Assembly (NCBI GenBank): GCA_024277355.1
Contig: JAJRVL010000004.1
Coordinates: 240,001-272,000, forward strand
Source: an archaeon
GTDB lineage: Archaea > Iainarchaeota > Iainarchaeia > Iainarchaeales > 1-14-0-10-31-34
Direction of reading: 5' to 3'
DNA: 32,000 nt
The first letter of the stretch is position 1. Each line of letters begins with the position of its first letter. Shown here in pieces: positions 6,093-32,000 of this stretch. Below the pieces are notes generated by a model. It was not told the origin of the DNA and searched no databases. It saw nothing but the letters and a program-made list of their open reading frames with translations. The translations under genes were made by a program, and so were the position numbers.

Positions 6093-7556
6093 ATGACAAA
6101 AGGAAAAGTTACATTTAATATTAATAAAACAAAAAATTTCTCTGAATGGTATACAGAAATAGTCAAAAAAGCAGAATTAGGAGACTTAAGGTATAATGTA
6201 AAAGGATTTGTTATTTTTCAGCCTTGGTCTGTTTTATCAATGGAAAAAATGTATGATTATTTTGAAGAATCACTTCAACTAAAAGGCCATAAACCTTATT
6301 GGTATCCTGCAGTTATTCCTGAAAAAAACTTTTTAATGGAAAAAAACCATGTTAAAGGTTTTGCACCGCAGGTATTTTGGATTACAGAAACAGGCGCAGG
6401 AGAAAAATTAGAATAAAGATTAGCTTTAAGACCTACATCTGAAACTGCTTTTTATCAGATGTTTTCTTTATGGATTCGTTCATATAAAGACCTTCCATTT
6501 AAAACTTACCAAAGAGCACAAGTATTTAGATATGAAACTAAAGCCACAAGACCTTTTTTAAGAAGCAGAGAATTCCACTGGATTGAAACACATAATGCTT
6601 TTGATTCAAAAGAAAATGCATTTAAGCAGGCAGAAGAAGACATGGAAACAACAAAAGAAGTTTTATTAGAAATTTTTGGCATCCCATTTATTTTCTTTGA
6701 AAGACCGCAATGGGATAAATTCCCTGGAGCAGAATCAACTTTTGCTGCAGATACCTTGATGCCTGACGGAAAAATAATTCAACTTCCTTCAACACATATA
6801 ATATCACAAAATTTTACTAAAGCATTTAATGTAAAATTCACTGATGAAAAAGGAAAAGAAAATTTCTGCTGGACTACTTGTTATGGTCCTGCAATAAGCA
6901 GAATTTTTGCAGCAATGATTTCAATTCACGGAGACGAAAAAGGATTAATTTTTCCTTTTCCTGTTGCACCAGTAAAAGCAGTAATTATACCAATATTTAA
7001 TGAAAAAAACAAGGAAAAAGTTTTGAAGGAAACAGAAGAAATAAAGAAAAAACTAATTAAAGAAAAAATCAGAACAGAAATTGATTTAACTGACAAAAAT
7101 ATGGGAGAAAAATTTTATTTCTGGGAAATGAAAGGAGTTCCATTTAGAATAGATTTAGGTAAAAAAGAACTCAAAGAAAAAAAAGCAACAGTTTTTATCA
7201 GACATTCAGGGAAAAAAACAAAAGAAAAAATTTCTAATTTAAATGAATTTATTTTAAAAGAAGGAAAAAAACAATTAGTTGAACTAAAAGAAAAATCAGA
7301 AAACTTTTTTATGAATTCAGTAAGCGAAGTGCATTCAATTGAAGAAGCAAAAAAACAAATAGAAAAAGGAAGAATTGTAAAAACTGAATTCTGTTCTGTT
7401 TTAATGACAGGTTATTCTTGTGCAGAAAAAATAGAAAAACAATTAAATGCAAGTGTAAGAGGAACAAAATTAAATGAAAAAGAAAAACCTAAAGGAAAAT
7501 GCATTGTCTGCGGAAAAAAAGCAGAAAAAATCGTTTATATTGCAAAATCTTATTAA
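6093..7556 (+). CDS. proS: Prolyl-tRNA synthetase, archaeal/eukaryal type, interrupted by one in-frame TAA (6414-6416)
   Basis: ORFs 6093-6416 and 6459-7556 are in the same frame. The full in-frame reading is [37 protein letters not shown]...FRYETK. N-terminal FSEWYTEIVKKAEL, a C-terminal Cys-rich zinc domain, and a terminal Tyr (IAKSY-TAA). Confidence 0.9.
6414..6416 (+). other. In-frame TAA inside proS
   Basis: gaa TAA aga tta gct tta aga cct aca tct gaa. The conserved RPTSE motif follows in frame. Confidence 0.95.
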
Positions 7557-7567
7557 CTTAAAAACTT

Positions 7568-7575
7568 TTTATATA
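7568..7575 (+). promoter_or_regulatory. TATA box (TTTATATA), with a second copy at 7585-7592
   Basis: Two TTTATATA octamers lie 47 and 30 nt upstream of ATG 7615. A tandem AGTGATT-AGTGATT (7599-7612) SD-like element follows. Confidence 0.4.
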
Positions 7576-7605
7576 TGATTCTGTTTTATATAACGGAAAG
7601 TGATT

Positions 7606-7611
7606 AGTGAT
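7606..7611 (+). promoter_or_regulatory. Shine-Dalgarno-like AGTGAT
   Basis: AGTGAT lies 3 nt upstream of ATG 7615. Confidence 0.4.
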
Positions 7612-7614
7612 TAA

Positions 7615-8691
7615 ATGGCTTTAATTGAAGAAATAAATTCTCTTGTAACTTCAGACAAAGATGTCAAAGAAAGAAAAAAAGAATTAAACAAACTAAAGAA
7701 AAAAGAAGAAAAAACTGAAAACCAAACAAAAAAAGCAAAGAAAGAAGACAAAAAAGAACCATTAAACAAAAAATCATTAATGCAGAAGTTAAGAGAAGAA
7801 CTTGATGATGTTAAAGGAAAAGAACTGGAAAAAAAAGATATTTCTGGATTAATAATAGAAGAAAAAGAACCAGAACATTTATGGCTTAAAAAAGAAAAAG
7901 GAACTGAAAAAACTGAAGACTCAAAAAAACATAAAACTCTTTTCAGAGAAGGACACTGGCATAAAACAGAAAAACAAAAAAAAGAAAACAAAGTAAGTGA
8001 ATTAAATTTAAAAATAGAAGAAAAAAACCTGCATCCGGAAGAACCAGAAGAAAAAACACAAATAATAGAAATGCTGAAAAAAACTGCTTCAGACTATAAA
8101 AAAATAAATAAACTTCCTTCTATTCCTGAAAAAAAAATAATGAAAAAAGGAGTTTCAGAAAAAGTACTAATTGAAAAAAAAGTTCCTGTAAAAACAAAAC
8201 CTTTTGTAGAAGATGAATTAATTCAGGGACTTTTACTTGAAACCCCGAAAAAAAGGAAAAAAGTTGAAGAACCAAAACCAAAAGAAAAAAATATTGTTTT
8301 TCAGGAAATTGAAGAACAAGAAGAAGAAAAACCAAAAAACTTTTTTCCTGCAGAACCGCAAAGAATGAAAGAACTTGAAGGAATTATTCCTTCAAAAAAT
8401 AAAAAACAAAAAGAAGAAACAAAAGAAGAAAATTTTACTATTGCACAGCAATTAGGGAATATTACTGGTTTTTTCACTAAAGGAATAGTTAAAAAAATGG
8501 GAGTAAAACAAGTAAATAAAAATGCTTTTGAAGGATTAACCAAAGAAGAACAAAAGAAAATAAAAAAACTTGCTTCTTCTCTGGAAGTATCAGTAAAAAA
8601 ATACACTAAAGAAGAAATAATTGAAGCAATGGAATTAGAAGGGCACACAGAAAAAATAATTAAGGCAGTAATCTCCTTGCTTTATGATTAA
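7615..8691 (+). CDS. Lys/Glu-rich low-complexity protein of unknown function
   Basis: 358-aa ORF, mostly K/E/P-rich charged sequence, with a more ordinary about 60-aa C-terminal segment (FEGLTKEEQKKIKKLASSLEVSVKKYTKEEIIEAMELEGH). It has its own TATA and SD. TAA stop. Confidence 0.55.
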   Translation: MALIEEINSLVTSDKDVKERKKELNKLKKKEEKTENQTKKAKKEDKKEPLNKKSLMQKLREELDDVKGKELEKKDISGLIIEEKEPEHLWLKKEKGTEKTEDSKKHKTLFREGHWHKTEKQKKENKVSELNLKIEEKNLHPEEPEEKTQIIEMLKKTASDYKKINKLPSIPEKKIMKKGVSEKVLIEKKVPVKTKPFVEDELIQGLLLETPKKRKKVEEPKPKEKNIVFQEIEEQEEEKPKNFFPAEPQRMKELEGIIPSKNKKQKEETKEENFTIAQQLGNITGFFTKGIVKKMGVKQVNKNAFEGLTKEEQKKIKKLASSLEVSVKKYTKEEIIEAMELEGHTEKIIKAVISLLYD

Positions 8692-9137
8692 TTTACTCCG
8701 GAATATTCATTAAAATTTAATTTCATTTCCTCTATTGCTGATGATTCAATTTTGTGTTTTAGTTCTCTTGTTTTAACAAAACCATTTTTTTCATATAATT
8801 TTTTTGCAGTAAAATTGTTTTTTTTAACTATAAGCATTATTTCTTTTATTTCTTTTTTTCTGCATAATTCAATAAGAAAATCAAGTAGTTTTTTTCCTAT
8901 CTTGTTTCCTCTGAATTCTTTTTTTACTGCCATTCCTAAAAGATTTACAGTAAAATCCTTAAATTTGAATTCAATAAAACCGACTAAATTATTTTTTTCT
9001 TTTACAGTGAAAATAATGTTTCCATTATTAATTCTTTTATTTATTTTTTCAATTGTTTTTTTTGTATAAGGAAATTCATTTTCAACTAATTTATTTATTT
9101 CATTAAAATCTTTTTTTTCTGCCTGAATTATTTCCAT
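8688..9137 (-). CDS. GNAT-family N-acetyltransferase
   Basis: About 149 aa from ATG 9137 (the ORF track starts at GTG 9146). Acetyl-CoA motif LLGMAVKKEFRGNKIGKKLLDFLIE (R-x-x-G-x-G/A type). AGTGTT lies 5 nt upstream of ATG 9137. Confidence 0.75.
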   Translation of the reverse strand: MEIIQAEKKDFNEINKLVENEFPYTKKTIEKINKRINNGNIIFTVKEKNNLVGFIEFKFKDFTVNLLGMAVKKEFRGNKIGKKLLDFLIELCRKKEIKEIMLIVKKNNFTAKKLYEKNGFVKTRELKHKIESSAIEEMKLNFNEYSGVN

Positions 9138-9798
9138 AAAAAACACTTAAATACTCTTCAATTTCTTCAAGTGAAACAGCACAACCATTGAATTTCAACC
9201 CATATAACGCTGCTTCAAGTGATTTAACTGAATTCTCTAATTCTCCTTCAAAACAACCTAAATCAAATGCTTTTGCAATTAATTCAGCTGATCTTACAAT
9301 CTTTATGTTTCCTGCAACAGAAAGAAATTTCTTTAAATTAGTGTTATTCATTTTAATTTTTCTTCTGTAATTAAATCTTAATTTTTTTGCGAGATTTTTG
9401 GGTTCTTCAATCAGCATTCTTGTAGTTCTTTCATCAATTATCATTACAGAAGCATTGGTTTTTTTGTATAAAGCAAGAGTTTCAGCTTCGCCTGCATGAA
9501 TAACTTTAATTGGCTTGTTTTCAGCAAAAAAAATATTGTTTGCAAGATTTTCCAGTTCACTTGAATCAATTTCTTCTTTTTCAACTTTAAACCAGTTTAA
9601 ATCAATTGCTCTTTTTATTCGCAAAGCATTTAATTCAAAACGATTTATTTTCAATGGCTTTAAAACTGACTCAAATTCAACTGCTTTAGTAATTCTAAAA
9701 CTGTAATTTGTTTTTTTTGATAAATTTTCAAGAATATTCATTAAACAGTTCTGTGAAACAGAAATAATTGAACTTGAATCAAAAACAATTTCATTCAT
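9103..9798 (-). CDS. PIN-domain protein (COG2405/DUF3368-like)
   Basis: IVFDSSSII (N-terminal acidic strand), HAGEAETLALY and VMIIDERTTR match the GEAE...DD/E-R pattern of this PIN subfamily. I prefer the start at MNEIVF (9798, 8-nt overlap with the upstream gene). An alternative ATG is at 9831. Confidence 0.55.
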   Translation of the reverse strand: MNEIVFDSSSIISVSQNCLMNILENLSKKTNYSFRITKAVEFESVLKPLKINRFELNALRIKRAIDLNWFKVEKEEIDSSELENLANNIFFAENKPIKVIHAGEAETLALYKKTNASVMIIDERTTRMLIEEPKNLAKKLRFNYRRKIKMNNTNLKKFLSVAGNIKIVRSAELIAKAFDLGCFEGELENSVKSLEAALYGLKFNGCAVSLEEIEEYLSVFYGNNSGRKKRF

Positions 9799-10345
9799 TA
9801 AAAATTCCTTCCAGCATTTTTTTTCTTTCATTTATTCCTTTAATTGTTTTTTCTCTGTCATGAATTTTAGTTATTCCAACATATTCCAGTAAATCTTTTT
9901 CATTTGCATCAGTTAAACTGCTTGACTGCCTTAAACTTAAACCTAAAGCATAAGCCCTTGAAGCCTGCTTTACTCTTGCTTTTTCATATAAATTTGCAAC
10001 AAAATTTCCCATTGAAGAATCAACTTCAAAAACTCTTTTAGAAATATTATTTAATTCTTTCTTGAATTCATTAAAATTTTTTTTTCTAAGACTGCCTGTT
10101 GCATTCCCCAAAGAAAAATCAATTCTTGTTTTAATTTTATTCCATTTTTCTGTTTCAATAATATGCGGTTTAGATAATAATTTTTGTAAAGAATAAGAAA
10201 TCAATGAAAGCTGAGCTAAAATTTTATCTGACTTTAATGCTGCTTCTTCAATTAAATCATTGCTCAACTGCCTTAACTTAAATGAATCATTTTTCAAAAA
10301 CGCTTTCCTTATTTTTTCTGTTGCATTAATTAAATCCGAAATCAT
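9791..10345 (-). CDS. Hypothetical helical protein
   Basis: 184-aa ORF with no recognisable motifs. First gene of an overlapping three-gene unit with the PIN and GNAT genes. TGA stop. Confidence 0.5.
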   Translation of the reverse strand: MISDLINATEKIRKAFLKNDSFKLRQLSNDLIEEAALKSDKILAQLSLISYSLQKLLSKPHIIETEKWNKIKTRIDFSLGNATGSLRKKNFNEFKKELNNISKRVFEVDSSMGNFVANLYEKARVKQASRAYALGLSLRQSSSLTDANEKDLLEYVGITKIHDREKTIKGINERKKMLEGIFNE

Positions 10346-10369
10346 GCATTAAAAAAAAGGAAACTAAAC

Positions 10370-10377
10370 TATTTATA
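10370..10377 (-). promoter_or_regulatory. TATA box (TATAAATA) for the 9791-10345 gene, leaderless geometry
   Basis: On the minus strand TATAAATA ends 24 nt before ATG 10345. Confidence 0.4.
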
Positions 10378-10405
10378 CCTTTTTAATGATAAAAAAGTAA
10401 AAACC

Positions 10406-10413
10406 TTTAAATA
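10406..10413 (+). promoter_or_regulatory. TATA box (TTTAAATA) for the 10435 gene, leaderless geometry
   Basis: Box starts 29 nt upstream of ATG 10435, with no SD. Confidence 0.4.
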
Positions 10414-10434
10414 AAAGTTTCATATATTCTAAAT

Positions 10435-11085
10435 ATGCAGTTAACAAAAAACCATTACGCAGCAATAGCAATTGTAATTATTGCAATTACAACTGTATTA
10501 TTATCGCAGTTTCCATTAGAAAATCCTAAACAAAATGACTTAGATGACGAAAAATTTTATTTAAATATTCCTGATTATAACGGCGAAGAATATTATACTA
10601 ATATTCCAGATTATGATATTAAACAGGAACCAGATGATTTCTTTAACAATAAACCAACTCCAGTTGAAATTCCCTTGGAATTTTCAATTGAAACTTCCGG
10701 CTGTTTAGGAGAAGTAAAAGACAATGCTTTTATGCCTGATGAAGAAAAAATAAAAGAAGTAAAAGAAAATCCAGTTTTAACTGCAGGAAAAAATTCAATT
10801 AAAGTAGAACATTATGGAAAATTATTTTGCAATGGAGCATCAAAAATTGACACTAATGCTTTTATCAATACTGATGGATTTGTAATAATATTAGAACAAG
10901 AAGAAGTTGATTCAGATAAATTTGTTTATGGTCCAACAACTTCTCCTCCTGAAGAAAGATTAATCTGCATTTGCGATTACAAAACAACAGTTAAAGTAAC
11001 CGGAATGACACCAGATACTTATTCAGTTATAGTTGAAAACAAAGAAGGACAAGACTGGTTATACGAAGCAGTAACAGTAAACTAA
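10435..11085 (+). CDS. Membrane-anchored extracellular protein, unknown function
   Basis: 216-aa ORF. N-terminal TM/signal anchor AAIAIVIIAITTVLL, a duplicated NIPDY motif, and several Cys residues. Confidence 0.55.
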   Translation: MQLTKNHYAAIAIVIIAITTVLLSQFPLENPKQNDLDDEKFYLNIPDYNGEEYYTNIPDYDIKQEPDDFFNNKPTPVEIPLEFSIETSGCLGEVKDNAFMPDEEKIKEVKENPVLTAGKNSIKVEHYGKLFCNGASKIDTNAFINTDGFVIILEQEEVDSDKFVYGPTTSPPEERLICICDYKTTVKVTGMTPDTYSVIVENKEGQDWLYEAVTVN

Positions 11086-11116
11086 TTCTAAAAAAAAGAA
11101 GCAAATAATACTTAAT

Positions 11117-11181
11117 AAAAAAATGCTTTATCGAGCTGAAAGCGAAGATAATGCACTGGTGTTAACTGACAGCGGCAGTTA
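11117..11181 (-). terminator. Structured 3-prime trailer of tRNA-Pro ending in hairpin plus T7
   Basis: Minus strand directly after the discriminator base reads TAACTG-CCGCTGT-CAGTTA (11163-11181), then GCTTT-CAGCTCGAT-AAAGC (11125-11143), followed by ATTTTTTT (11117-11124). Confidence 0.4.
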
Positions 11182-11337
11182 TGGGACTGCCCGGATTTGA
11201 ACCGGGGTCAATGGCTAATTTGCAACAGTTATTTAACAGAATAAAACAAAGCAAACCGGCTGAAAACCATGCCTGCACTCAACTGATAAAACAGTTGCCC
11301 CAAAGCCACAATGCTAACCAAGCTACACCACAGCCCC
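11182..11337 (-). tRNA. tRNA-Pro (anticodon UGG) with an 82-nt intron at the canonical 37/38 position
   Basis: Acceptor GGGGCTG/CAGTCCC with discriminator A. D-loop contains GG. Anticodon stem GTGGC/GCCAT, loop TT-TGG-G (anticodon 11302-11300). T arm CCCGG-TTCAAAT-CCGGG. No encoded CCA. The intron is flanked by a canonical BHB. Confidence 0.9.
11217..11298 (-). other. tRNA intron with hBHBh-prime splicing motif
   Basis: 4-bp central helix T32-G35 (TTTG) with CAAA. 3-nt bulges GG^G and TT^A. Outer helix CAACTGTT/AACTGTTG with one T-T mismatch. Confidence 0.8.
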
Positions 11338-11363
11338 AAAACTGCAATTATACTCTTAAAACT

Positions 11364-11371
11364 TAATAAAA
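11364..11371 (-). promoter_or_regulatory. TATA-like box (TTTTATTA) upstream of tRNA-Pro
   Basis: On the minus strand the box ends 26 nt before tRNA position 1 (11337). Confidence 0.3.
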
Positions 11372-11421
11372 GAAAGTTTTTAAAGTAAAAGCATTTAAGT
11401 TATTGGAACATAATTCTTACT

Positions 11422-13260
11422 ATGAATTTCAGAGAATTAGCTGAATATTTTAATAAAATTGAATTAATTTCTTCTCGATTAGAAATGACTAAAATTTTAG
11501 CTGAATTACTAAAAAAAGCTGATTCAGAAAACATAAAAAAAATTGTTTTTTTATGTCAGGGAAGATTAGGTGCAAACTATGAAAAAACTGAGTCAGGTTT
11601 AGGAGAAAAAATGGTAATTGAAGCAATAGTAAAAGCTTCAGGTTTTACAAAAAAAGAAATAGAAAAAAGCTTCAGAGAAAAAGGCGATTTAGGTTTAGCT
11701 GCAGAAGAATTTTGTTCCCAAAAAAAACAGGCTTCATTATTTTCAGAAGAATTAAATGTAAAAAAAGTTTTTAATAATTTAATTAAAATTTCAAAAACAG
11801 AAGGAACAGGCTCAAAAGAATCAAAACTAAAATTAATGGCTGAATTATTTAATTCTGCTTCAGGAACAGAAGCAAAATTTATTGCAAGAATTCCATTAGA
11901 AAATTTAAGGTTAGGCGTAGGAGATCCAACAATAATGGATTCTTTGGCTTCAAATTTGCTTGAAGAAGGAAAACAAAACAAACAATGGATTAAAGAAATT
12001 GAAACAGAAATGAAAGAAAAAAAAATTAAAGAAAAAAACTGGAAAGAAGAATTAAATCGAAAAATTAAATTAAAGTTAAGGGAAAAAATAGAAGAAAAAT
12101 ATAATATTCATCCAGATTTAGGTTTAATTGCAGAAATACTGAAAAAAAAAGGACTTAAAGGATTAAAAGAAATTCAAATTCAAATTGGAATTCCTATCAG
12201 ACCAACACTTGCAGAAAGACTGAATTCTTCAGAAGAAATAATAAAAAAATTAGGCAACTGTATTGTTGAAAGCAAATATGATGGATTTAGAATTCAATGC
12301 CATAAAGATGGAAATAAAGTATGGATTTATTCAAGGCAGTCAGAAAACATGACTGAAATGTTTCCTGATTTAGTTAAAGCAATAAAAGAAGAAATCAAAA
12401 CAGAAAAAGTTATTTTAGAAGGAGAAGCAATTGCATTTAATGAATTAACCAATGAATTCTGGCCTTTTCAGATTACAATTCAAAGAAAAAGAAAATATGG
12501 AATAGATGACAAAGCAAAAGAATTTCCATTAAAATTATTTGTTTTTGATATAATGTTTTTAGAAGGAAAAAATTTAATGAACGAAACTTTTACTGAAAGA
12601 AGAAAAGCTTTAAAAGACATAATTGGAAACGGAAATACAGTTGCTTTAACTAATTTTATTGAAACTGATTCAGCAAAAAAATTAGATGAATTTTTTGAAG
12701 AAAGTATTACTAATGGATTAGAAGGAATTATTGCAAAAGACTTAAATGCAAAATATATTGCAGGAAAAAGAAAATTTGCCTGGATTAAATTAAAGAGAAG
12801 CTATAAAGGAGAATTAAATGATTCAGTTGACGGAGTAATAATAGGTTATTATACTGGAAAAGGAAAAAGAACTGAATTTGGTTTAGGTGCATTATTAACT
12901 GCAGTTTATTCAGAAAAAGAAGATGTCTTTAAAAGCATTGCAAAAATTGGAACAGGATTAACAGACAAAAATTTAAGTGAACTGGAAAAAATTCTGAAAA
13001 AAATTTCTTCAAAGAAAAAACCTGCAAGAGTTGAATCAGAATTAACTCCTGATTACTGGACTGCTCCAAAATATGTAATTGAATTAAGAGCAGATGAAAT
13101 AACCCAAAGTCCAATTCATTTAGCTGCAAAAAAAGACGGAAAAGGCCTTGCATTGAGATTTCCAAGAATGATTTCAATAAGACAAGACAAAAAACCGGAA
13201 GACGCAACAACAGAAGAAGAAATCAAAAAAATGTATGAAAAACAAGGAAAAAAAGAATAA
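11422..13260 (+). CDS. lig: ATP-dependent DNA ligase
   Basis: 612-aa ORF. Adenylation motif ESKYDGFR (KxDG), EGEAIAF, LFVFDIMFLEG, EGIIAKD and WIKLKR. Contains a K/E-rich insertion (about 11962-12100) before the YNIHPDLG segment. Confidence 0.9.
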   Translation: MNFRELAEYFNKIELISSRLEMTKILAELLKKADSENIKKIVFLCQGRLGANYEKTESGLGEKMVIEAIVKASGFTKKEIEKSFREKGDLGLAAEEFCSQKKQASLFSEELNVKKVFNNLIKISKTEGTGSKESKLKLMAELFNSASGTEAKFIARIPLENLRLGVGDPTIMDSLASNLLEEGKQNKQWIKEIETEMKEKKIKEKNWKEELNRKIKLKLREKIEEKYNIHPDLGLIAEILKKKGLKGLKEIQIQIGIPIRPTLAERLNSSEEIIKKLGNCIVESKYDGFRIQCHKDGNKVWIYSRQSENMTEMFPDLVKAIKEEIKTEKVILEGEAIAFNELTNEFWPFQITIQRKRKYGIDDKAKEFPLKLFVFDIMFLEGKNLMNETFTERRKALKDIIGNGNTVALTNFIETDSAKKLDEFFEESITNGLEGIIAKDLNAKYIAGKRKFAWIKLKRSYKGELNDSVDGVIIGYYTGKGKRTEFGLGALLTAVYSEKEDVFKSIAKIGTGLTDKNLSELEKILKKISSKKKPARVESELTPDYWTAPKYVIELRADEITQSPIHLAAKKDGKGLALRFPRMISIRQDKKPEDATTEEEIKKMYEKQGKKE

Positions 13261-13340
13261 AAAAAATATAAAGAAAAACAAAACAAAAAAGCTAACAGAA
13301 AGAAATAATAACCCAAAAAAGTTTAGTATTAAGGATTAAA

Positions 13341-13589
13341 ATGAACAAAACAGTATTTTTTTTGTTTAGAGCATCATTATTTATGACAGGGTTTGTAGCA
13401 GTAGCTTATGCTATGGTTTACTTTGGACAGTATTTAGGGGAATTCAGAGATTACTTTTTTCGTGCAGGAAAATGGCCTGAAGCATTAGCTTTATTAATAA
13501 TTGTTTTAGGAATAAGCTCAGTATTAAGGAAACTGCTGTTATGGGAATACAGAAAAGAAGCAGGAATTAAAAGGAGAAAAAAAAGATGA
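13341..13589 (+). CDS. Small two-TM membrane protein
   Basis: 82-aa ORF with two hydrophobic helices and a basic tail (KRRKKR). Its TGA stop overlaps the next ATG (ATGA). Confidence 0.45.
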   Translation: MNKTVFFLFRASLFMTGFVAVAYAMVYFGQYLGEFRDYFFRAGKWPEALALLIIVLGISSVLRKLLLWEYRKEAGIKRRKKR

Positions 13590-14566: not shown

Positions 14567-14610
14567 CCAAGAAGACTTAAAAAGTATTTGCAATTAAATT
14601 TATTTATTAA

Positions 14611-14616: not shown

Positions 14617-14621
14617 AAAAA

Positions 14622-15889: not shown

Positions 15890-15892
15890 AAT

Positions 15893-20243: not shown

Positions 20244-20246
20244 TAT

Positions 20247-24344: not shown

Positions 24345-25252
24345 AAGCAATAGGCATTGATATCGGCGGAAGCGAAATTAAAGCAGGAATAATAACCAAT
24401 AAAGGAAAAATACTAAAAAAAATTAAAATTGAAACTAATTCTATTCATGGAAAAAAAAGTTTAATTAAAAACCTTGAAAGAATAATCAAAAAACTTGATT
24501 CAAAAGAAATTAAAGGCATAGGAATAGGTTTTGCAGGCGGAGTTGACTCAAAAAAAGGACAAATAATCCAAAGCCCTAATATTCCTTCAATGAATAATGT
24601 TTTTTTAGTTAAAGAATTAAAGAAAAAATTCAGAAAAAAAATTATATTAGAAAATGACGCAGCATTAATGGCTTTAGCTGAAGCATTAATTGGAGCAGGA
24701 AAAAAATATTCTATTGTTGTAGGATTAACTGCAGGAACAGGAATTGGTTCAGGACTAATAATAAACAAAAAAATTTATTCAGGAAAAGATAATTTAACTG
24801 AAATAGGCCATACAATAATCAACTTTAACGGCCCAAAATGTTCCTGTGGAAATAACGGCTGTTTAGAACAATACGTTGGAATAAAACCTTTAATGAAATT
24901 AACTGAAAGAAAAATAGAATTACATAATTCAATACTGAAAAAAATGTGGCCTTTAACTCCAAAAAAAGTTGATTTAGCAGCCAAAAAAAAAGATAAAACT
25001 GCAGTTTCAATTTTAAAAGAAACAGGAATTTATTTAGGAATAGGGTTAACAAATATTTTAAATTCATTTAATCCTGACGTAATAATTTTAGGCGGAGGAT
25101 TAAGCAATTCAGATTTAATGATTAAAACAGCAGTAAAAGAAATGAAGTTAAGAGCATTTAAGAGAACAAGAAACACTAAAATACTTAAAGCAAAATTCAG
25201 AAATAATGCAGGAATTATTGGTGCCGGACTGATTGTATTCAAATCAAATTAA
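24341..25252 (+). CDS. ROK-family sugar kinase (glucokinase-like)
   Basis: 303-aa ORF. IGIDIGGSEIK ATPase motif and ROK zinc motif CSCGNNGCLEQY. Confidence 0.85.
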   Translation: MKAIGIDIGGSEIKAGIITNKGKILKKIKIETNSIHGKKSLIKNLERIIKKLDSKEIKGIGIGFAGGVDSKKGQIIQSPNIPSMNNVFLVKELKKKFRKKIILENDAALMALAEALIGAGKKYSIVVGLTAGTGIGSGLIINKKIYSGKDNLTEIGHTIINFNGPKCSCGNNGCLEQYVGIKPLMKLTERKIELHNSILKKMWPLTPKKVDLAAKKKDKTAVSILKETGIYLGIGLTNILNSFNPDVIILGGGLSNSDLMIKTAVKEMKLRAFKRTRNTKILKAKFRNNAGIIGAGLIVFKSN

Positions 25253-25278
25253 AACCTTTCTATGCATTAAATTTAATT

Positions 25279-25284
25279 AGTGAT
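25279..25284 (+). promoter_or_regulatory. Shine-Dalgarno-like AGTGAT
   Basis: AGTGAT lies 3 nt before ATG 25288. Confidence 0.4.
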
Positions 25285-25287
25285 AAT

Positions 25288-25959
25288 ATGAATGAAAAAC
25301 AAAAAGAAAACGCAGCAAAAGAAGCAGTAAAATATATTGAAAAAGGAATGACAATAGGTTTAGGAAGCGGAAGTACAGCAGAATTGTTTGTAAAACTTTT
25401 AGCTGAAAAAAATAAAAAAGAAAATTTAGATTTAACCTGTGTTGCAACCTCAAATAAAATTGCAGGATTAGCAATTGATTTAGGATTAAAAGTAATAAGC
25501 TTTGATTCAGTTGAAAAAATTGATATTGCAGTTGACGGAGCAGACCAAATAAACGAAAAAAAAGAATTACTTAAAGGAATGGGAGCATATGCTTTCCTGA
25601 AAGAAAAAAGAATTGATTATAAAGCAGAAAAATTTATTGTAATTGCAGATGAAAGTAAATTAGTTAAAGAATTAAACGGCGAAATTTTAGTTGAAGTTGA
25701 ACCAACAGAATTATTTAATATATTAAAAAAATTAAGCGATGATTATGATGCAGAAGCAGTACAGATTTCACAAAAATGTATGCCTTTAGAAACAGAAAAC
25801 AAAAATTATGTTATTTCAATGCAATTGCATTCAGAAATAGAAAACGCAAAAAAAATGGAAAAACAAATTGACTCAATTCAAGGAGTAAAAGCAAACGGAT
25901 TATTTACAAGAAATTGCACTATAATTATTGGAACAGAAAAAGAAACAAAAATTTTATAG
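25288..25959 (+). CDS. rpiA: Ribose-5-phosphate isomerase A
   Basis: 223-aa ORF with GLGSGSTA, VDGADQI and KGMGAYAFLKEK. TAG stop. Confidence 0.85.
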   Translation: MNEKQKENAAKEAVKYIEKGMTIGLGSGSTAELFVKLLAEKNKKENLDLTCVATSNKIAGLAIDLGLKVISFDSVEKIDIAVDGADQINEKKELLKGMGAYAFLKEKRIDYKAEKFIVIADESKLVKELNGEILVEVEPTELFNILKKLSDDYDAEAVQISQKCMPLETENKNYVISMQLHSEIENAKKMEKQIDSIQGVKANGLFTRNCTIIIGTEKETKIL

Positions 25960-25966
25960 TAAAACC

Positions 25967-25974
25967 TTTAAAAA
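25967..25974 (+). promoter_or_regulatory. TATA-like box (TTTAAAAA) for purM, leaderless geometry
   Basis: Box centre is about 26 nt upstream of ATG 25996. This favours ATG 25996 over the GTG at 25987. Confidence 0.35.
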
Positions 25975-25995
25975 AAAAGGAATGAAGTGAAAAAA

Positions 25996-27045
25996 ATGAC
26001 AACTTATTCTGAAGCAGGAGTAAACATAGAAAAAGGAACTGAAACAGTCAAAAGAATAAAAAAACACGTTAAATCTACTTTTAATGAAAATGTATTGCTT
26101 GATTCAGGTTTATTTGCAGGCGCAATAGACTTAAAAAAAATAAAAAAAATGAATAATCCTGTGTTGCTTTCAAGCATTGACGGAGTAGGAACCAAAACAG
26201 TTATAGCAGAAAAAATGAATAAATGGGATTCAATTGGACAAGATTTAGTTAATCATTCAGTTAATGACATTTTATGCCATGGAGGAGAACCAATTGCTTT
26301 TTTAGATTATGTTGCTTCTTCTTCAATTAAACCTGAAATAATAGAAGAAATAGTTCAAGGAATGACAGTTGCATGCAAAGAAAATGGAGTTGCATTAATT
26401 GGCGGGGAAACAGCAGAAATGCCTGATGTATACCAAGAAAATGAAATAGACTTAGCAGGAACAATACTTGGAATAGTAGAAAAAGAAAAACTTATTACAG
26501 GAAAAAACATAAAAGAAAAAGATGTACTTATTGCATTGCCTTCAAATGGTTTGCATACAAACGGATATTCTCTTGCAAGAAAAGTAATAGAAAAAACAAA
26601 AATAAGCCTGAAAGAACAGTTTGTAGTAGAAAAAGAAGATTTAACTATTGGAGGAGAACTCTTAAAAATCCATAAAAGTTATCTGAAAGAAGTAAGTTTT
26701 TTATTAAAAAAATTTGAATTAAAAGGAATTTCTCATATTACCGGCGGAGGATTAATTGATAATTTGCCAAGAATTTTTCCTGAAGGAATTGGAGCAAAAA
26801 TAAATCCAAACAAAATTAAAATTCCATTTATTTTTGAATGGATTCAAGAAAATGGAGTTATTTAAGAAGAAGAAATGTTTAAGACATTTAACATGGGAGT
26901 TGGAATGGTTTTAATTGTATCAGAAAAAGATTCAGATAAAATTATTTCAGAACTAAAAAAACAATTTAATTCAAATGCAATTGTAATTGGAGAAACAATT
27001 AAAGGAAAAGGAATTCAATTAGAAAAACCTTTATTTAAAGAATAA
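25996..27045 (+). CDS. purM: Phosphoribosylformylglycinamidine cyclo-ligase (AIR synthetase), interrupted by one in-frame TAA (26863-26865)
   Basis: YSEAGVNIEKG, DGVGTK and NDILCHGGEPIAFLDY. After FEWIQENGVI-TAA the same frame continues EEEMFKTFNMGVGMVLIV...IGETIKG, the conserved PurM C-terminus, ending at TAA 27043-27045. Confidence 0.85.
26863..26865 (+). other. In-frame TAA inside purM
   Basis: gga gtt att TAA gaa gaa gaa atg ttt aag aca ttt aac atg gga. Confidence 0.95.
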
Positions 27046-27078
27046 ATTTTTGCAGGACTATCAAGCAAAACAAAGACA

Positions 27079-27099
27079 GCACGCGTTACTCGCGGATGC
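27079..27099. terminator. GC-rich hairpin between convergent purM and the small Zn-protein gene
   Basis: GCACGCG-TTACT-CGCG(GA)TGC is the only GC-rich stem in this intergenic region. On the minus strand it is followed by TGTCTTTGTTTTGC. On the plus strand a T5 run (27046-27050) directly follows the purM stop. Confidence 0.35.
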
Positions 27100-27109
27100 A
27101 ACTGCAACA

Positions 27110-27307
27110 TTAAAACATTCCTTTTGCAGATTTCCTTGCTTTTCTCATGCATTTTTTATGCCAGTATTGTCCAGCCCATTTTTTTTCTGAACCAGCTCCG
27201 CCACATAAAGCACAATCCTGAACATATTTTCCTTCAGGTTCTGCAGTAACTTCTTCTTTTTTTTCTATTTCTTCTTCTTTTTTCTTAAACATATCAGTTA
27301 AACCCAT
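27110..27307 (-). CDS. Small CxxC...HxxC zinc-binding-like protein
   Basis: 65 aa from ATG 27307 (the ORF track starts at TTG 27334). Acidic/basic N-terminal half, then DCALCGGAGSEKKWAGQYWHKKCMRKARK. No family recognised. Confidence 0.4.
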   Translation of the reverse strand: MGLTDMFKKKEEEIEKKEEVTAEPEGKYVQDCALCGGAGSEKKWAGQYWHKKCMRKARKSAKGMF

Positions 27308-27369
27308 AAAACCACAGAAAAAGATAAAGAACAAAAAATAAATAAAAGAAACGCACTATTAATAACTAA

Positions 27370-28998
27370 ATGAATAAAAAAATAAGTTTAATTTTAGTGT
27401 TTTTTATTTTAATTGGAACAACAACTATTGCAGGAGGAATAATTCTGCCGCCTCCAGTAGACAATCCTTCTCTTATAGCTGAATGGTATCCTATCTGGGA
27501 TCAAACTCCTGAAAGAGTAGGACCAGCAACCTTTATCTATTTTAAAGTTAAAACAACCTGCAATAATGGACCATGCGACAATGTAACTGCAACAATTCAG
27601 TGCTGTGAAGGAGACGGCTGTACTAACTATGTGGATATGCCTTATCCTTCAGGAAGCTGCGGCAATTCAGGAATTCTTCAGACATATACTGAAACAATAC
27701 AAGACCTTGGAAGTTTTAGTGGAGATAAATATCCTAAATGGACTCTTCACATAAATTTTCCTGGAGCACAAGGACACATATTTAATTTAAGAATAATTAC
27801 AAAAGGATCATTTATTGACACTAATTATCTTTCAGGAATGCAATTAGAAATGGATAATTATCCAGGAATTACTTTAAATTCTCCTTCTACTTCTGAAACA
27901 ACTGAAGTTTCAATTGGAGGGCAATTATCAATTAACTGGACAACAACAGATTTAGATAACGATAACATTCTTTCAAGAATTTATTATTATCCTGTAGGAA
28001 ATCCTGGAAACACACAAATGATTTATCAAAGTCCATGGCAGGCTCCGGGAACGCATTCAACTAACTGGACTATTCCTGATGTTGACACAGGAAATTATTA
28101 TTTATATGTTAATGCAAATGACAATTATACAAGCACTAATTCAAAAAATGCAACAATAAATATAAATCCTGCTCCTTCAACTCTTTCAGCTTTAATTCTT
28201 TCTCCTTCTGACTTAAATAATTTTTTTATTGGTTCAACAATAAACTTTAAGTCAAATATTAAATGCGGAAATTCTCCTTGCACTGTTAAATGGGATTCAA
28301 ATAAAGACTCAGAATGGTATTCAACAGATGAAAATTTTAGTTATTCAGGTTTAAGCATTGGAGACCATAATATTACTTTAACTGTAACTGATTCTATTTC
28401 TGAAACTGCAACTGATTCAGTTAACATAAAAATTAATCCAATTACAGCAGATGTTTTATCTATTTCAGATTTTGAAATAATTAAAGTTGAACCAAATAAT
28501 AGGTTTGCAGTAAACGGAAAAATCAGAATAAAAGCAAAAGTAAATTATTACCAAAGCCAATCAATAAGCGGAAAAGCTTTCATAATAATAAGCGATTCAA
28601 TTACACACAAAGCAATTTATGGTCCTGAACCATTTTATTTCAGTTTTACTATTCCTTCATTTGAAGAATATGACTTAAACATTGATTTAAGCAATTATCC
28701 TTTTGTTGAAAGACAAAATTACAAAGTAGAATTTTTAGCTGTAAGCAATCAAGTTGAATCATCAGGAGAATATTTTGTTAATCCAGTTGATTCTGATAGT
28801 GCTTACTGGGATGACGGAGACAGTTATTATATTCCAGATGAACAAATCCCTGAACAAAACAAAGCAAACAATTCAGGTTACCAAATAATAGAATTAGGTC
28901 CTGCAAATTTAGGGGACATAAGCCAACTACCCGAAACAAATCCTGCAATTATTTTATTAATTTTATTTAGTGTGCTGATAATAATTAAAAAAAAATAA
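27370..28998 (+). CDS. Large secreted/surface protein with Cys-rich module, PKD-like domain and C-terminal LPETN-TM-KKK anchor
   Basis: 542-aa ORF. N-terminal signal/TM ISLILVFFILIGTTTIAGG, Cys-rich TTCNNGPCDN...QCCEGDGCTN, PKD-like GDHNITLTVTDSISETATDSVNIKI, and a C-terminal LPETNPAIILLILFSVLIIIKKK. Confidence 0.7.
   Translation: MNKKISLILVFFILIGTTTIAGGIILPPPVDNPSLIAEWYPIWDQTPERVGPATFIYFKVKTTCNNGPCDNVTATIQCCEGDGCTNYVDMPYPSGSCGNSGILQTYTETIQDLGSFSGDKYPKWTLHINFPGAQGHIFNLRIITKGSFIDTNYLSGMQLEMDNYPGITLNSPSTSETTEVSIGGQLSINWTTTDLDNDNILSRIYYYPVGNPGNTQMIYQSPWQAPGTHSTNWTIPDVDTGNYYLYVNANDNYTSTNSKNATININPAPSTLSALILSPSDLNNFFIGSTINFKSNIKCGNSPCTVKWDSNKDSEWYSTDENFSYSGLSIGDHNITLTVTDSISETATDSVNIKINPITADVLSISDFEIIKVEPNNRFAVNGKIRIKAKVNYYQSQSISGKAFIIISDSITHKAIYGPEPFYFSFTIPSFEEYDLNIDLSNYPFVERQNYKVEFLAVSNQVESSGEYFVNPVDSDSAYWDDGDSYYIPDEQIPEQNKANNSGYQIIELGPANLGDISQLPETNPAIILLILFSVLIIIKKK
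28927..28995 (+). other. C-terminal tripartite sorting-signal-like element (LPETN, hydrophobic helix, KKK)
   Basis: Translated directly: L-P-E-T-N at 28927-28941, then PAIILLILFSVLIII, then KKK and the stop. Confidence 0.5.
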
Positions 28999-29057
28999 AA
29001 TAAAATTAACAAAAAAAACTAAATAAAAAAATAAAAAGAAAAGGAAAAATAATTTCC

Positions 29058-30218
29058 TTATTTATTTTCCATTAATTTTTTTAGAATTGGAGGGGTAGCT
29101 AAAGTTGTAAGCATTATTACTACTACTAAAACAGAATACATTCCATCTCCAATAAAAGCATGAGCTAAACCAAAAGTAGCAAAAATTAAACCTACTTCCC
29201 CTCTTGGAATCATTCCAACTCCAACCGCCATCTTTGAAGCAGGAGTTCCAATTGCACCAAAACCTGCAATAATTTTTCCCACTAAAGCAATTATTAACAA
29301 AACAATTCCTAAGGGAATTAAATCAATATTAACAGTTGAAATATTTACTGCTACTCCAGCCATAACAAAAAAAATTGGAGTAAAAACATCTCCGATTACT
29401 TCAGTTTTCTTCATTATATGTTCTTTGTGTTCTTCTCTTTCAAGAACCAAACCTGCTGCAAAAGCTCCAACAATTGCAGCTAAACCAATTAATTGAGCTA
29501 AATAACCTAAAGTTAAAGCAAAAATAACTGAAGTTACAACAAAAGTTCTCTGAACTTTTAATGCACGAATAATTTTTAGGATTGGCTCCTCTAATTTTAT
29601 TCCAATTACAACTGTTACTGCTAAAAACAAAAAAGATACAACAATTGTCTGCAATACATTAAAGATTTCAACTGAACCTGTTTCAGCTATTCCAGCTAAA
29701 ACAGACAAAATTATTAATCCTAAAATATCATCAATTACTGCAGCTCCAAGAATAATTTTTCCTTCAAGCGAAGTTACTTTTTTCATTTCACTTAAAACAC
29801 GCATTGTTACTCCAACACTAGTTGCAGTCAAAGTCGCAGCAATAAACAAAGCAGCATTAAAATTTAATAATTCAATATAAAGCAGATAAGGCAAAGCCAG
29901 CAGCATTGGAGCAACAACTCCAATTATTGCAACAATTAAAGCAGCTTTACCGCTTTTTAATAATTCATGAATATTAGATTCTAATCCAACTAAAAATAAT
30001 AAAATTATTACTCCTATTTCAGATAAAAACATTAAGATTTCTTCATGGCCAGTAATAAAACCAAATAAACTTGGCCCTAATAAAACTCCAACTAATAATT
30101 CTCCTAAAACTCTTGGCTGTTTTATTTGATCAAACAAATATCCTGCAAGTTTTGCAGAAATTAATATTACAATTAGTTTAAGCATTATTTCAGCTATTAC
30201 TTCACTTCCTCCAGACAA
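29058..30218 (-). CDS. Cation:proton antiporter (CPA2 / Kef-type Na+/H+ exchanger family)
   Basis: 386-aa polytopic ORF with QPRVLGELLVGVLLGPS near the N-terminus. TTG start 6 nt after GGGGGA. An alternative ATG is at 30185. Confidence 0.8.
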   Translation of the reverse strand: MSGGSEVIAEIMLKLIVILISAKLAGYLFDQIKQPRVLGELLVGVLLGPSLFGFITGHEEILMFLSEIGVIILLFLVGLESNIHELLKSGKAALIVAIIGVVAPMLLALPYLLYIELLNFNAALFIAATLTATSVGVTMRVLSEMKKVTSLEGKIILGAAVIDDILGLIILSVLAGIAETGSVEIFNVLQTIVVSFLFLAVTVVIGIKLEEPILKIIRALKVQRTFVVTSVIFALTLGYLAQLIGLAAIVGAFAAGLVLEREEHKEHIMKKTEVIGDVFTPIFFVMAGVAVNISTVNIDLIPLGIVLLIIALVGKIIAGFGAIGTPASKMAVGVGMIPRGEVGLIFATFGLAHAFIGDGMYSVLVVVIMLTTLATPPILKKLMENK

Positions 30219-30438
30219 AAAAATTCCCCCTGATTCAATTCTAAAAGAAAAAAATAATCTCAGAAAACTTTAAAAACTTAATTAAATAAATTCAGAAATT
30301 CAAAAAAAAATATTGTTTTAAAAAAAACATTAAAAAAAATAAGAAATAATTAATTAAAATTTAGTTTAGAAATAACTTTAATTAATGCAACAACAAAAAG
30401 AATAACTTTAATTACTTATTATTCTTTTTTAATATCAG

Positions 30439-30663
30439 ATGTTTGTCAAGACAATAAAAAAAATATTTAAAACTTTAAAAAAAATAGTTTCTGGTTTAAT
30501 TAATTCACTTCTTCTTTTATTAGTTTATTTCACTGCAGTGGCTTTAACTTCAATTTTTGCAAAAATTCTTGGGAAAAAATTCCTTGAAACAAAAGCAAAA
30601 AAAAGCTACTGGCAGGAAATGAAATTAAACACAAAAAAAGAAGATTATTACAGGCAATTCTGA
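30439..30663 (+). CDS. Small single-TM membrane protein (tentatively like the short membrane proteins that accompany carbamoyltransferases)
   Basis: 74-aa ORF. Basic N-terminus, TM LINSLLLLLVYFTAVALTSIF, then AKILGKKFLETKAKKSYWQEMK. First gene of a three-gene same-strand cluster. Confidence 0.4.
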   Translation: MFVKTIKKIFKTLKKIVSGLINSLLLLLVYFTAVALTSIFAKILGKKFLETKAKKSYWQEMKLNTKKEDYYRQF

Positions 30664-30673
30664 GGAAAAAAAA

Positions 30674-31537
30674 ATGAATGCAGGAGAAAAAGTAAAAGAA
30701 TTTTATAACAAAACACCTTTTCCTGGTTTTGAATTAAAAAAATTTAACAGCAAAAAAGAACTCAAAATTACTGCTTCTTCTTTTGCTGAAACATTAGACA
30801 GAAGTATCCCTGAAAATGCTTCAGTAATTGATGTAGGAACAGGAACAGGCCAGTTAGCAGGATTACTTTCATTAAGAAGAAAAAAAGTTATGGGAATAGA
30901 TTTCTCTGAAAATTCTTTGAATCAAGCAAAAAAACTAAAAGAAAAATTAAAATTAAATTCACTGGAATTAAAAAAAATTGATTTATTAAATGACAAAGAA
31001 ATTGAAGCAATAGGAAAATTTGATTATGTTTTATGTTTAGGAGTATTACAGCACACTGCAAATCCATATAAAGGATTTACAAACCTGCTGAAACTACTAA
31101 AACCTAAAGGATTTATTGCAGTAGGATTATACAACAAGTTTGGAAGAATTCCACTGAAAATAAGAAAAGTTCTGACAAAAACAGTTTTCAAAGACAATGA
31201 AAAAATAAAAAAACATTTTATTTCAATGCAGTTGGATTCACTTAAAGATAAAAAAAAAACTGAAGCATGGTGGCAGGACCAGTATTTTCATCCATTTGAA
31301 TCAACTCATTTTTTAGGAGAAGTTTTAGACTGGTTTAAAAAAAATAAAATAGAATTTTATCAGACAATTCCTTCATTGAATTTTTTTGACGAACAAAAAC
31401 TGGAAATTGCAGGAGTATGGAACAAATACAATGAAACAAAACCTTCTTTTTTAAAAAGAAATTTAATTCAGTTAAGCTGGATTTGGAAAACACAAAAAGA
31501 AGGCGGATATTGGATTACTTTCGGGAGAAAAAAATGA
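30674..31537 (+). CDS. Class I SAM-dependent methyltransferase
   Basis: 287-aa ORF. Motif I VIDVGTGTGQLA, post-I MGIDFS, and LKPKGFIAVG. Its TGA overlaps the next ATG (ATGA). Confidence 0.75.
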   Translation: MNAGEKVKEFYNKTPFPGFELKKFNSKKELKITASSFAETLDRSIPENASVIDVGTGTGQLAGLLSLRRKKVMGIDFSENSLNQAKKLKEKLKLNSLELKKIDLLNDKEIEAIGKFDYVLCLGVLQHTANPYKGFTNLLKLLKPKGFIAVGLYNKFGRIPLKIRKVLTKTVFKDNEKIKKHFISMQLDSLKDKKKTEAWWQDQYFHPFESTHFLGEVLDWFKKNKIEFYQTIPSLNFFDEQKLEIAGVWNKYNETKPSFLKRNLIQLSWIWKTQKEGGYWITFGRKK

Positions 31538-32000
31538 CTTATATTCTGGGATTAAGCTGCTATTACCATGACTCTTCCGCCTGCCTGCTTAAAAACGGAA
31601 AAATAATTGCAGCAGCAGAAGAAGAAAGATTTACAAGAAAAAAACACGACAACTCTTTTCCTTTTAATGCAATAACATTCTGCTTAAAAAAAGAAAAAAT
31701 CACAATACAAGAAATAAACTTTATTGCTTTTTATTAAAAACCTTTAATTAAATACGAAAGAATTCTTTCACAATACATTGAAACTTTTCCTTTAGGTTTT
31801 GTGAATTTTATTAAGAATATGCCTTTATGGCTGACAGAAAAATTAAAAGTAAGAGAAACAATCAAAAAAAAACTTAAATTTAAAGGAGACATTTTTTTTA
31901 TTGAACACCACTTATCACACGCAGCAAGTGCATTTCTTTGTTCTCCTTTTCAGGAAGCAGCAATACTTACAATTGACGGAGTAGGCGAATGGACTACAAC
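31534..32000 (+). CDS. NodU/CmcH-family carbamoyltransferase (3-prime partial), interrupted by one in-frame TAA (31735-31737)
   Basis: MTYILGLSCYYHDSSACLLKNGKIIAAAEEERFTRKKHD...IAFY-TAA-KPLIKYERIL...FIEHHLSHAASAF...ILTIDGVGEW, all in one frame. Runs off the window end. Confidence 0.85.
31735..31737 (+). other. In-frame TAA inside the carbamoyltransferase gene
   Basis: att gct ttt tat TAA aaa cct tta att aaa tac gaa aga. Confidence 0.95.

Follow-up and report, generated by a model that had tools for sequence, protein, structure and literature searches.

The 32,000-nucleotide stretch of DNA analyzed here (the window), from the 27.6% GC genome of a DPANN archaeon, contains three genes that are intact except for one in-frame TAA apiece: proS, purM, and a NodU/CmcH-type carbamoyltransferase gene, all on the forward strand. 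A preliminary description of this DNA had reported three such codons together with the peptides around them, and we found them exactly as described, at 6414-6416, 26863-26865, and 31735-31737. Homology in the same frame runs on past each TAA, to the native end of the protein where that end is visible, and Pfam domains cover both flanks of each of the three stops.

The proS gene (6093..7556, + strand), which encodes an archaeal-type prolyl-tRNA synthetase (ProRS), comprises 487 codons if it is read through its one stop, at codon 108 (6414..6416, + strand; context GAA-TAA-AGA). The read-through product has the Pfam domains tRNA-synt_2b, HGTP_anticodon, and ProRS-C_1, matches PDB 1nj1 across residues 10-487 (E=1e-99), and shares 77-80% identity with nine sister proteins that have no interruption. 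It also ends in ...IAKSY-TAA, as had been noted, and this terminus is the same in all relatives. The codon at the position of the stop is GAA in five of five sister genomes, and the corresponding column is Glu in 28 of 28 close relatives; among 81 archaeal loci, we found Glu in 63, Asp in 11, and another residue in 7. We considered that proS might be a split gene in which translation re-initiates after the stop, but the first in-frame start codon downstream is the ATG at 6459, with none ahead of it, and this ATG lies past the essential ALRPTSE segment. Thus, a two-piece ProRS enzyme is impossible, and we ruled out this model. Moreover, the best 120 matches included no other ProRS encoded on the 526,574-bp contig, and proS looks like the only visible prolyl-tRNA synthetase gene of this genome, seemingly present in a single copy. 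In a scan of JGI metagenomes for a TAA at the same proS codon, no prokaryotic ProRS carried one: one match was a chance match in non-coding sequence, and another was a ciliate-like ProRS fragment with many in-frame TAA and TAG codons, not an archaeal gene. A query with N in place of the T found no contig of the same species in these metagenomes.

The purM gene (25996..27045, + strand; 349 codons read through) encodes AIR synthase, with Pfam domains AIRS and AIRS_C. There is an alternative start, a GTG, at 25987. The product of purM matches PDB 3m84 (E=8e-94) and is 70-79% identical to 12 uninterrupted sisters, with which it shares its C-terminus. The TAA is at codon 290 (26863..26865, + strand; context ATT-TAA-GAA), in a hypervariable column that is occupied by P, S, L, F, I, Q, or E and by E in only 1 of 27 relatives. 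Sister genomes have GAA, CAA, TCA, or TTA at this position; thus, no single ancestral codon can be assigned.

The carbamoyltransferase gene is represented by its 5' part (31534..32000, + strand; 155 codons), since it runs past the end of the window, and has its TAA at codon 68 (31735..31737, + strand; context TAT-TAA-AAA). The Pfam domain Carbam_trans_N spans this stop (E=2e-37). The syntenic loci of the sisters contain no orthologue of this gene. At E<=1e-30 it has 485 relatives, and identity to the best of these is 61-63%. In 150 relatives, the stop column is acidic in 148 (90 E and 58 D), with one N and one T, within the motif FY[ED]KP. Thus, the earlier proposal that all three stops occupy Glu-equivalent positions held for proS and, as Glu or Asp, for the carbamoyltransferase, but not for purM with its hypervariable column.

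A six-frame scan of the window found no further real gene, among about 34, that continues across a stop. We also found no frameshift in the window, despite 195 homopolymer runs of at least 7 nt in coding sequence, as the preliminary description had indicated. Public gene calls likewise split these three genes (P0010, 365 aa; P0121, 107 aa; P0127, 289 aa; all on the single 526,574-bp NCBI contig); thus, the stops are present in the deposited record. As claimed before, the genes are otherwise typical of their families, with domains on both sides of the stops and no excess of deviations at conserved columns. At columns invariant in all other sequences, the window proS has two unique deviations, compared to a range of 0-4 in the 28 relatives; these are the stop itself and Q295K (CAA>AAA, a G:C>T:A change), which is the sole non-stop difference from all 28 ProRS relatives. 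It has no deviation at columns at least 95% conserved among 85 ProRS relatives, and the window purM has zero unique deviations at its own invariant columns.

Prokaryotic genomes usually have far fewer interrupted genes than three in about 34. We observed 3 in-frame stops in 9,972 codons of the window and 0 in 27,677 aligned codons of five sister genomes (Fisher p=0.019, an optimistic value because the window was chosen for its odd look). These five genomes are syntenic, with ProRS identities of 77-80%, and have sense codons at the proS and purM stop positions. Broken genes do occur in the sisters, where the coding sequence either is divided between two frames or contains several lesions.

One explanation for stops inside intact genes is that TAA encodes an amino acid, either throughout the genome, as a reassignment to Glu of the kind found in the nuclear code of peritrich ciliates, in which UAR is Glu, or only part of the time, by dedicated suppression. 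In the latter case, an ochre-suppressor tRNA (anticodon UUA) or a weakened aRF1 would make TAA a dual-use codon, and GAA>TAA changes would be near neutral. The use of TAA as a terminator bears on both. As called, the genes of the window end in 24 TAA, 7 TGA, and 3 TAG; the count of 24 in 34 reported previously is correct as a raw count, but one of these TAA codons closes an ORF that lies antisense to a tRNA and is spurious, which leaves a real figure of 23 of 33. TAA-terminated genes stop at the same C-termini as the sister proteins, and there is no retreat from TAA as a terminator, given that its share is 70% in the window compared to 41-55% in the sisters. We found no hidden C-terminal extension past a TAA in the window; the lone candidate, a Lys-rich tail after the stop of a DNA ligase gene, is low complexity. 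Back-up stops are more common in the window than in the sisters, but they are equally frequent after TGA or TAG, which makes them an effect of base composition and not of selection for tandem stops. In addition, there are 902 GAA codons in the window and only three in-frame TAA codons. Thus, the terminator usage of the window already refutes genome-wide reassignment, as was concluded at the outset: the two stops at Glu positions are all that speaks for it, the purM stop falls in a hypervariable column, and a sense TAA would fuse or lengthen most genes. We regard this reading as having next to no chance of being correct. Dual use would leave UAA as the main terminator, but the high TAA share, the distribution of back-up stops, and the scarcity of in-frame TAA relative to GAA all weigh against it as well.

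We examined whether the identity of the interrupted codons could arise by chance. The window uses GAA and GAG in a ratio of 902:22, and GAA makes up 9% of all codons. Under this codon usage, a random nonsense substitution yields TAA in 59-62% of events, and the chance that three of three nonsense hits are TAA is ~0.2. Glu>TAA alone accounts for 16-27% of random nonsense events, and is the likeliest or second likeliest route, such that the observed Glu pattern has a chance expectation of p ~0.07-0.18. Thus, with GAA abundant and GAG near absent, a Glu>TAA pattern is expected in the absence of any Glu decoding and does not imply it.

The search for a decoder in the window gave no candidate. The window has no tRNA with a UUA anticodon; its sole tRNA is an intron-containing tRNA-Pro, which ARAGORN in default mode missed, with no tRNA called at all. 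In intron mode, ARAGORN called a tRNA-Stop(tta) in one sister locus, but Rfam alignment showed this to be a mis-spliced tRNA-Gln(UUG) with an intron of ~96 nt. The aRF1 gene, whose product recognizes stop codons through the motifs NIKS and YxCxxxF, is absent from the window. A partial aRF1 is present at the locus of one distant relative (L028). A suppressor tRNA, if one exists, would derive from tRNA-Glu or tRNA-Gln and be charged with Glu or Gln, and it would possibly contain an intron and hence be overlooked by standard tRNA finders. GatD and GatE are both encoded in the window, and it is established that the GatD/GatE route loads Glu first on tRNA-Gln; a suppressor derived from tRNA-Gln would thus first receive Glu.

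We also found no read-through element common to the three sites. The base after the stop is A, G, and A, and TAA codons that terminate genes are followed by a similar mix. Compared to 627 GAA codons used as controls, the 100 nt 3' of the stops fold slightly better (percentiles 12, 4.6, and 20), a small effect in favor of suppression, but the three predicted structures are unlike in shape, lie at different positions, are only mildly stable, and have no element in common. These comparisons of 3' bases and folds bear out the initial statement that the stops lack a shared context or downstream hairpin. Moreover, in programmed read-through the stop is conserved in relatives, whereas at proS and purM, the two sites that can be compared, all sisters have a sense codon; in recoding by selenocysteine (Sec) or pyrrolysine (Pyl), the codon is UGA or UAG, whereas all three codons here are TAA.

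Known systems of stop decoding resemble this one in part. Classical ochre suppressor tRNAs, with the anticodon UUA, arose from tRNA-Gln, tRNA-Lys, or tRNA-Tyr in E. coli and yeast. There, UAA stays the main terminator and a weak suppressor reads some of it, an arrangement that would explain how the stop in proS is tolerated; in contrast, we found no such tRNA in the window, and a version that inserts Glu is hypothetical. To our knowledge, no ochre suppressor tRNA has been described from any natural archaeon. In the ciliate Condylostoma, stops are context dependent and UAA is both sense codon and terminator (Swart et al. 2016, PMC4967479). Ciliates, however, are eukaryotes in which in-frame UAA is abundant, whereas here TAA is overwhelmingly a terminator, in frame at 3 in ~10,000 codons. 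In archaeal Sec and Pyl recoding, a stop specifies an amino acid, in competition with termination in the case of Pyl (PMC9499178), but these systems use other codons, a dedicated tRNA, a synthetase or SECIS/PYLIS elements, and sites conserved in relatives, none of which applies here. UAA decoding is not among the cases described in this review of archaeal codes from 2022, which treats Sec (UGA) and Pyl (UAG).

Some features do fit dedicated suppression: two of the sites are strictly acidic and the third accepts any residue, Glu and Gln included; an essential gene, proS, carries one of the stops although the genes are otherwise perfectly conserved; and there are nonsense lesions with no frameshifts, as if only stops were rescued. 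Nevertheless, with the Glu pattern within reach of chance, no shared context, and tRNA searches that returned only tRNA-Pro in the window and tRNA-Gln(UUG) in the sister, we consider a dual-use TAA read by dedicated suppression unlikely, and we give equally little weight to its corollary, a free-living, size-reduced DPANN archaeon in which UAA is still the main terminator and essential genes tolerate GAA>TAA.

We looked for signs of a general process of decay or error in the lineage-specific changes of the window. Decaying pseudogenes do not account for the data, given one lesion per gene, no frameshift, and no excess of deviations at conserved columns, although a very young pseudogene could still be compatible with a single lesion per gene. 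Nor did we find relaxed selection, as the window is no outlier at invariant columns; the ratio of nonsynonymous to synonymous singletons is 0.99 compared to 0.51-0.80 in the sisters, but is confounded by the extreme codon bias of the window. The window has 243 lineage-specific nonsynonymous changes, compared to a range of 183-277 in the sisters, and 22 lineage-specific G:C>T:A changes (19 nonsynonymous and 3 synonymous), compared to 12-24 in the four sisters that cover both regions. Thus, lineage-specific substitutions show no excess of G:C>T:A or in total, and we rejected a mutator or oxidative-damage signature at this level. However, 21% of hits by a process that yields only G:C>T:A changes give stops, so that ~14 such events in 30 kb would suffice, a number below the detection limit of singleton counts.

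The same numbers bear on whether the stops are artefacts of the consensus, that is, whether the cells themselves have sense codons at these positions, GAA in two cases, and the TAA triplets are substitution errors of the deposited assembly. A possible route would be oxidized guanine, with G>T fixed by a template bottleneck, as in low-input or amplified DNA. Both sites with a known ancestor are G>T, the purM stop is possibly C>A from TCA, and Q295K in ProRS is likewise G:C>T:A; indeed, 8-oxoG artefacts give rise to precisely GAA>TAA and to C>A changes of the Q295K type. The ~14 events needed could hide among the 22 observed, there is a single public assembly of the species and hence no cross-check, and an artefact would account at once for the broken look of an essential gene. 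Oxidative G>T artefacts, however, normally affect a low fraction of reads and not the consensus, whereas the change here is in the consensus and comes with no measurable excess of G:C>T:A. The long homopolymers free of indel errors and a 526-kb contig imply good coverage and a careful consensus, and invariant residues show no extra deviations. We therefore think a consensus artefact possible but rather doubtful. Taken together, the available tests speak mildly against efficient suppression and against error or decay as a general process, and the options listed in the preliminary description (read-through or a suppressor, a G>T artefact, or recent nonsense mutation) were the right set, each of which still stands.

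Our preferred explanation, held tentatively and with somewhat less than even confidence, is that the three stops are lineage-specific single-base substitutions of sense codons to TAA under the standard code, with TAA as the main terminator. The change would be GAA>TAA in proS, and almost certainly likewise in the carbamoyltransferase gene, and its origin would lie in the strong AT-biased codon usage, which places GAA among the largest one-step targets for stops. In the absence of a dedicated decoder, ribosomes would mostly terminate at the three TAA codons, and full-length protein would be made only by rare misreading of UAA by a near-cognate tRNA, or not at all. Such a loss may be tolerable for purM and for an accessory carbamoyltransferase, whereas proS would need a sufficient basal leak or an unseen back-up gene. 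The alleles would be young, since each gene has exactly one lesion and shows decay in no other respect. The sequence is of good quality, with no frameshift at the long homopolymers, which supports this explanation. Against it, proS is essential, and a nonsense allele fixed at codon 108 should kill the cell if read-through is not substantial; a set of three nonsense changes with zero frameshifts is not the pattern of random gene decay; and the stops, known here from the assembly alone, may be absent from the organism itself.

There is precedent for such stops. In-frame stops in otherwise constrained prokaryotic genes have been described as short-lived and possibly leaky, and low-level read-through has been proposed as the means of surviving them (Belinky et al. 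2021, PMC7918605). As in that study, we observed single nonsense substitutions within genes that still look selected. In contrast, the earlier cases are from bacteria and the stops are shared between species, whereas ours are from an archaeon and no stop is shared with any relative; moreover, a single genome has three of them among about 34 genes, all TAA, and one of them in an essential aminoacyl-tRNA synthetase.

Whether the stops are real or artefactual, chance alone predicts that TAA will appear at Glu positions when a genome is very AT-rich, and such a pattern is not by itself evidence of a code change. If the stops are an artefact, then a contiguous, frameshift-free MAG may still hold substitution errors that split essential genes, and such errors would mislead counts of completeness and pseudogenes and mimic recoding. 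We know of no UAA decoding in prokaryotes, and if suppression does operate here, neither archaea nor bacteria would have an earlier example of a dual-use UAA. Stops that prove real would make this genome a natural test of the level of UAA read-through that an archaeal cell survives, and its broken-looking, apparently single-copy proS would point to a surprisingly high basal leak or to an undiscovered suppressor.

Three genes in the window, proS (encoding prolyl-tRNA synthetase, ProRS), purM (AIR synthase) and a NodU/CmcH-type carbamoyltransferase gene, each carry one in-frame TAA codon, at 6414–6416, 26863–26865 and 31735–31737, respectively, all on the plus strand. As the preliminary description had proposed, these genes continue in frame past the internal stop: alignments of Pfam domains and PDB homologues run across each TAA. 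A mechanical six-frame scan of the window found no further real gene running on past a stop, and the remaining genes end where their orthologues end. We also noted that the DNA ligase stop lies 3–8 residues short of the ends in sister genomes, and that between this TAA and a later TAA TAA lie 15 Lys-rich codons in the same frame (13258–13311); the tail is of low complexity, and this TAA was not counted as a fourth case. The interrupted genes are deposited as fragments (P0010, 365 aa; P0121, 107 aa; P0127, 289 aa) from one NCBI contig (526,574 bp), and thus the stops belong to the public record; no other occurrence of the species was found among 15 billion proteins. In total, the window has 3 premature stops in 9,972 codons, compared to 0 in 27,677 aligned codons of five syntenic sister genomes (P = 0.019, an optimistic value since the window was chosen for its odd appearance). 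It is the number of stops, not their occurrence as TAA at Glu positions, that is unusual.

All three sites had been described as Glu-equivalent, which holds for two of them. In ProRS, the interrupted column is Glu in 28 of 28 aligned relatives and the codon is GAA in all five sisters, while 81 more distant archaeal loci have E (63), D (11) or other residues (7). In the carbamoyltransferase, the column lies in the motif FY[ED]KP; of 150 relatives, 90 have E and 58 have D. The PurM column is instead hypervariable (P, S, L, F, I, Q or E), with E in only 1 of 27 relatives, and the four sisters with DNA at this position (L085, L086, L087 and L088) have GAA, CAA, TCA and TTA, each a single substitution from TAA. 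Several ancestral purM codons are thus conceivable, and judging from these alignments the site is unconstrained. TAA is central among the codons seen, and P, F or I occurs at this site in further relatives.

We calculated how often such a pattern would arise from random nonsense substitutions, given the codon usage of the window (GAA:GAG, 902:22; Glu, 9.3% of residues), with mutation modelled as uniform, transition-biased or AT-biased. Across the three models, 59–62% of nonsense substitutions yield TAA and 16–27% originate from Glu, such that the probability that all three stops are TAA is ~0.2 and that at least two of three derive from Glu is 0.07–0.18. TAA at Glu positions is therefore near the default expectation, and is no evidence for Glu decoding.

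If TAA were reassigned genome-wide, it should not close genes, but 23 of 33 real window genes end in TAA at conserved C-termini; we agree with the earlier exclusion of a wholesale reassignment, which we regard as exceedingly improbable. A true dual-use TAA, arising through a dedicated ochre suppressor or through termination that is leaky, is unlikely. TAA terminates a larger share of genes in the window (70%) than in the sisters (41–55%), which argues against efficient suppression. No genome of the clade is richer in AT than that of the window (27.6% GC, compared to 29–34% among L081–L089, which include the sister loci). The lack of a shared codon context or downstream hairpin, noted earlier, was confirmed when context and predicted folds were inspected, as the three TAA codons have no common 3′ base, codon context or structure. 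Compared to the stretches after 627 GAA codons used as controls, the 100 nt from each TAA (6414–6513, 26863–26962 and 31735–31834) fold slightly better (percentiles 12, 4.6 and 20; Fisher combination, P ~ 0.03), but the shapes are unrelated, with no common structure or spacing.

No suppressor tRNA is present in the window, whose sole tRNA gene is a tRNA-Pro (11182–11337, minus strand) with an intron of ~85 nt after position 37; its anticodon is UGG from the Rfam alignment and GGG from ARAGORN intron mode. Neither ARAGORN with default settings nor Rfam at the gathering threshold detected this gene, and a 61-aa ORF on the plus strand (11181–11366) was rejected as its antisense strand. Likewise, a tRNA-Stop(tta) called by ARAGORN intron mode in a sister (L087, 18308–18473, minus strand) proved by covariance-model alignment to be tRNA-Gln(UUG) interrupted by a ~96-nt intron. 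In this clade, tRNA genes seem often to have long introns, which can result in false suppressor calls. A tRNA-Arg(UCG) lies near proS, mostly a few kilobases upstream and in some copies with introns, in 42 of 89 DPANN loci (L001–L089; for example L010, 9732–9804, and L014, 9805–9932), and is absent there in the window and the five sisters.

We considered that the TAA codons might be artefacts, introduced as substitutions in the only assembly available, which is possible, although somewhat less likely than real alleles. With regard to a general sequencing-error or damage process, lineage-specific G:C>T:A changes show no excess (22 in the window, 19 nonsynonymous and 3 synonymous, compared to 12–24 in the four sisters covering both regions); only ~14 such events in 30 kb would be enough to produce three stops. 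Window ProRS has only one further residue not shared with any of the 28 close relatives, at codon 295 (7009–7011), with Lys (AAA) in place of Gln (CAA); this C>A change is a hint, not a result, and among 85 sequences sampled more broadly the conservation of the column is lower.

We found no support for gene decay. In sequence so rich in homopolymers, inactivation at random should yield at least as many frameshifts as stops, and the earlier impression that frameshifts are lacking stands, with 0 found despite 195 coding homopolymer runs of at least 7 nt. Each interrupted gene has exactly one lesion, window ProRS and PurM are not outliers at invariant columns, and the number of amino-acid changes unique to the window lineage lies inside the sisters' range. 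Broken genes in the sisters are of the ordinary kind: a poorly conserved gene split over two frames (inferred from gene coordinates) and another with several lesions. In genome A (L081, 11512–12607 and 17594–18576), the orthologue of the window gene at 7615–8691 lies in two reading frames and a membrane-protein gene is fragmented; in genome C (L085), an arrestin-like gene has several stops (2224–2701). Separately, window genes at 86–3100, 4000–4848 and 30439–32000 lack counterparts in the sister loci, which are syntenic elsewhere, and may be lineage-specific insertions; they comprise an MTHFR-like gene, an EamA transporter, a methyltransferase, the carbamoyltransferase and two adjoining ORFs, in different frames, with the MetE N- and C-terminal domains.

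UAA decoding is not known outside eukaryotes, where ciliates provide examples. The sole environmental contig that shares the proS TAA position with the window is of this ciliate kind: L091 (JGI Ga0172371_10108974, 1–2567; 30% GC) encodes part of a eukaryote-type ProRS, has many in-frame TAA and TAG codons and interrupting segments, and most probably stems from a ciliate with a UAR=Gln code. The gene set of the window itself is archaeal (GatD, GatE, diphthamide synthase, ATP-dependent DNA ligase, AlaX and archaeal-type ProRS), and its nearest relatives are uncultured DPANN archaea labeled Diapherotrites, Pacearchaeota or Woesearchaeota. A review from 2022 on the genetic codes of archaea treats UGA (Sec) and UAG (Pyl), and names UAA only as a downstream stop codon (PMC9499178).

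Thus, we conclude that these features are premature TAA codons arising from single-base substitutions in one genome with the standard code. We tentatively favor nonsense alleles that are real and young, with no dedicated recoding, which the cell would survive through basal read-through, dispensability (purM and the carbamoyltransferase) or an unseen back-up gene. The case of proS calls for caution: the gene is essential and apparently single-copy, its TAA precedes the ALRPTSE active-site segment, and it has no restart codon before the ATG at 6459. In-frame stops are on record for constrained prokaryotic genes, and were taken to be transient and leaky (PMC7918605); compared to these, the window would represent a dense, archaeal case, with an aminoacyl-tRNA synthetase among the genes.
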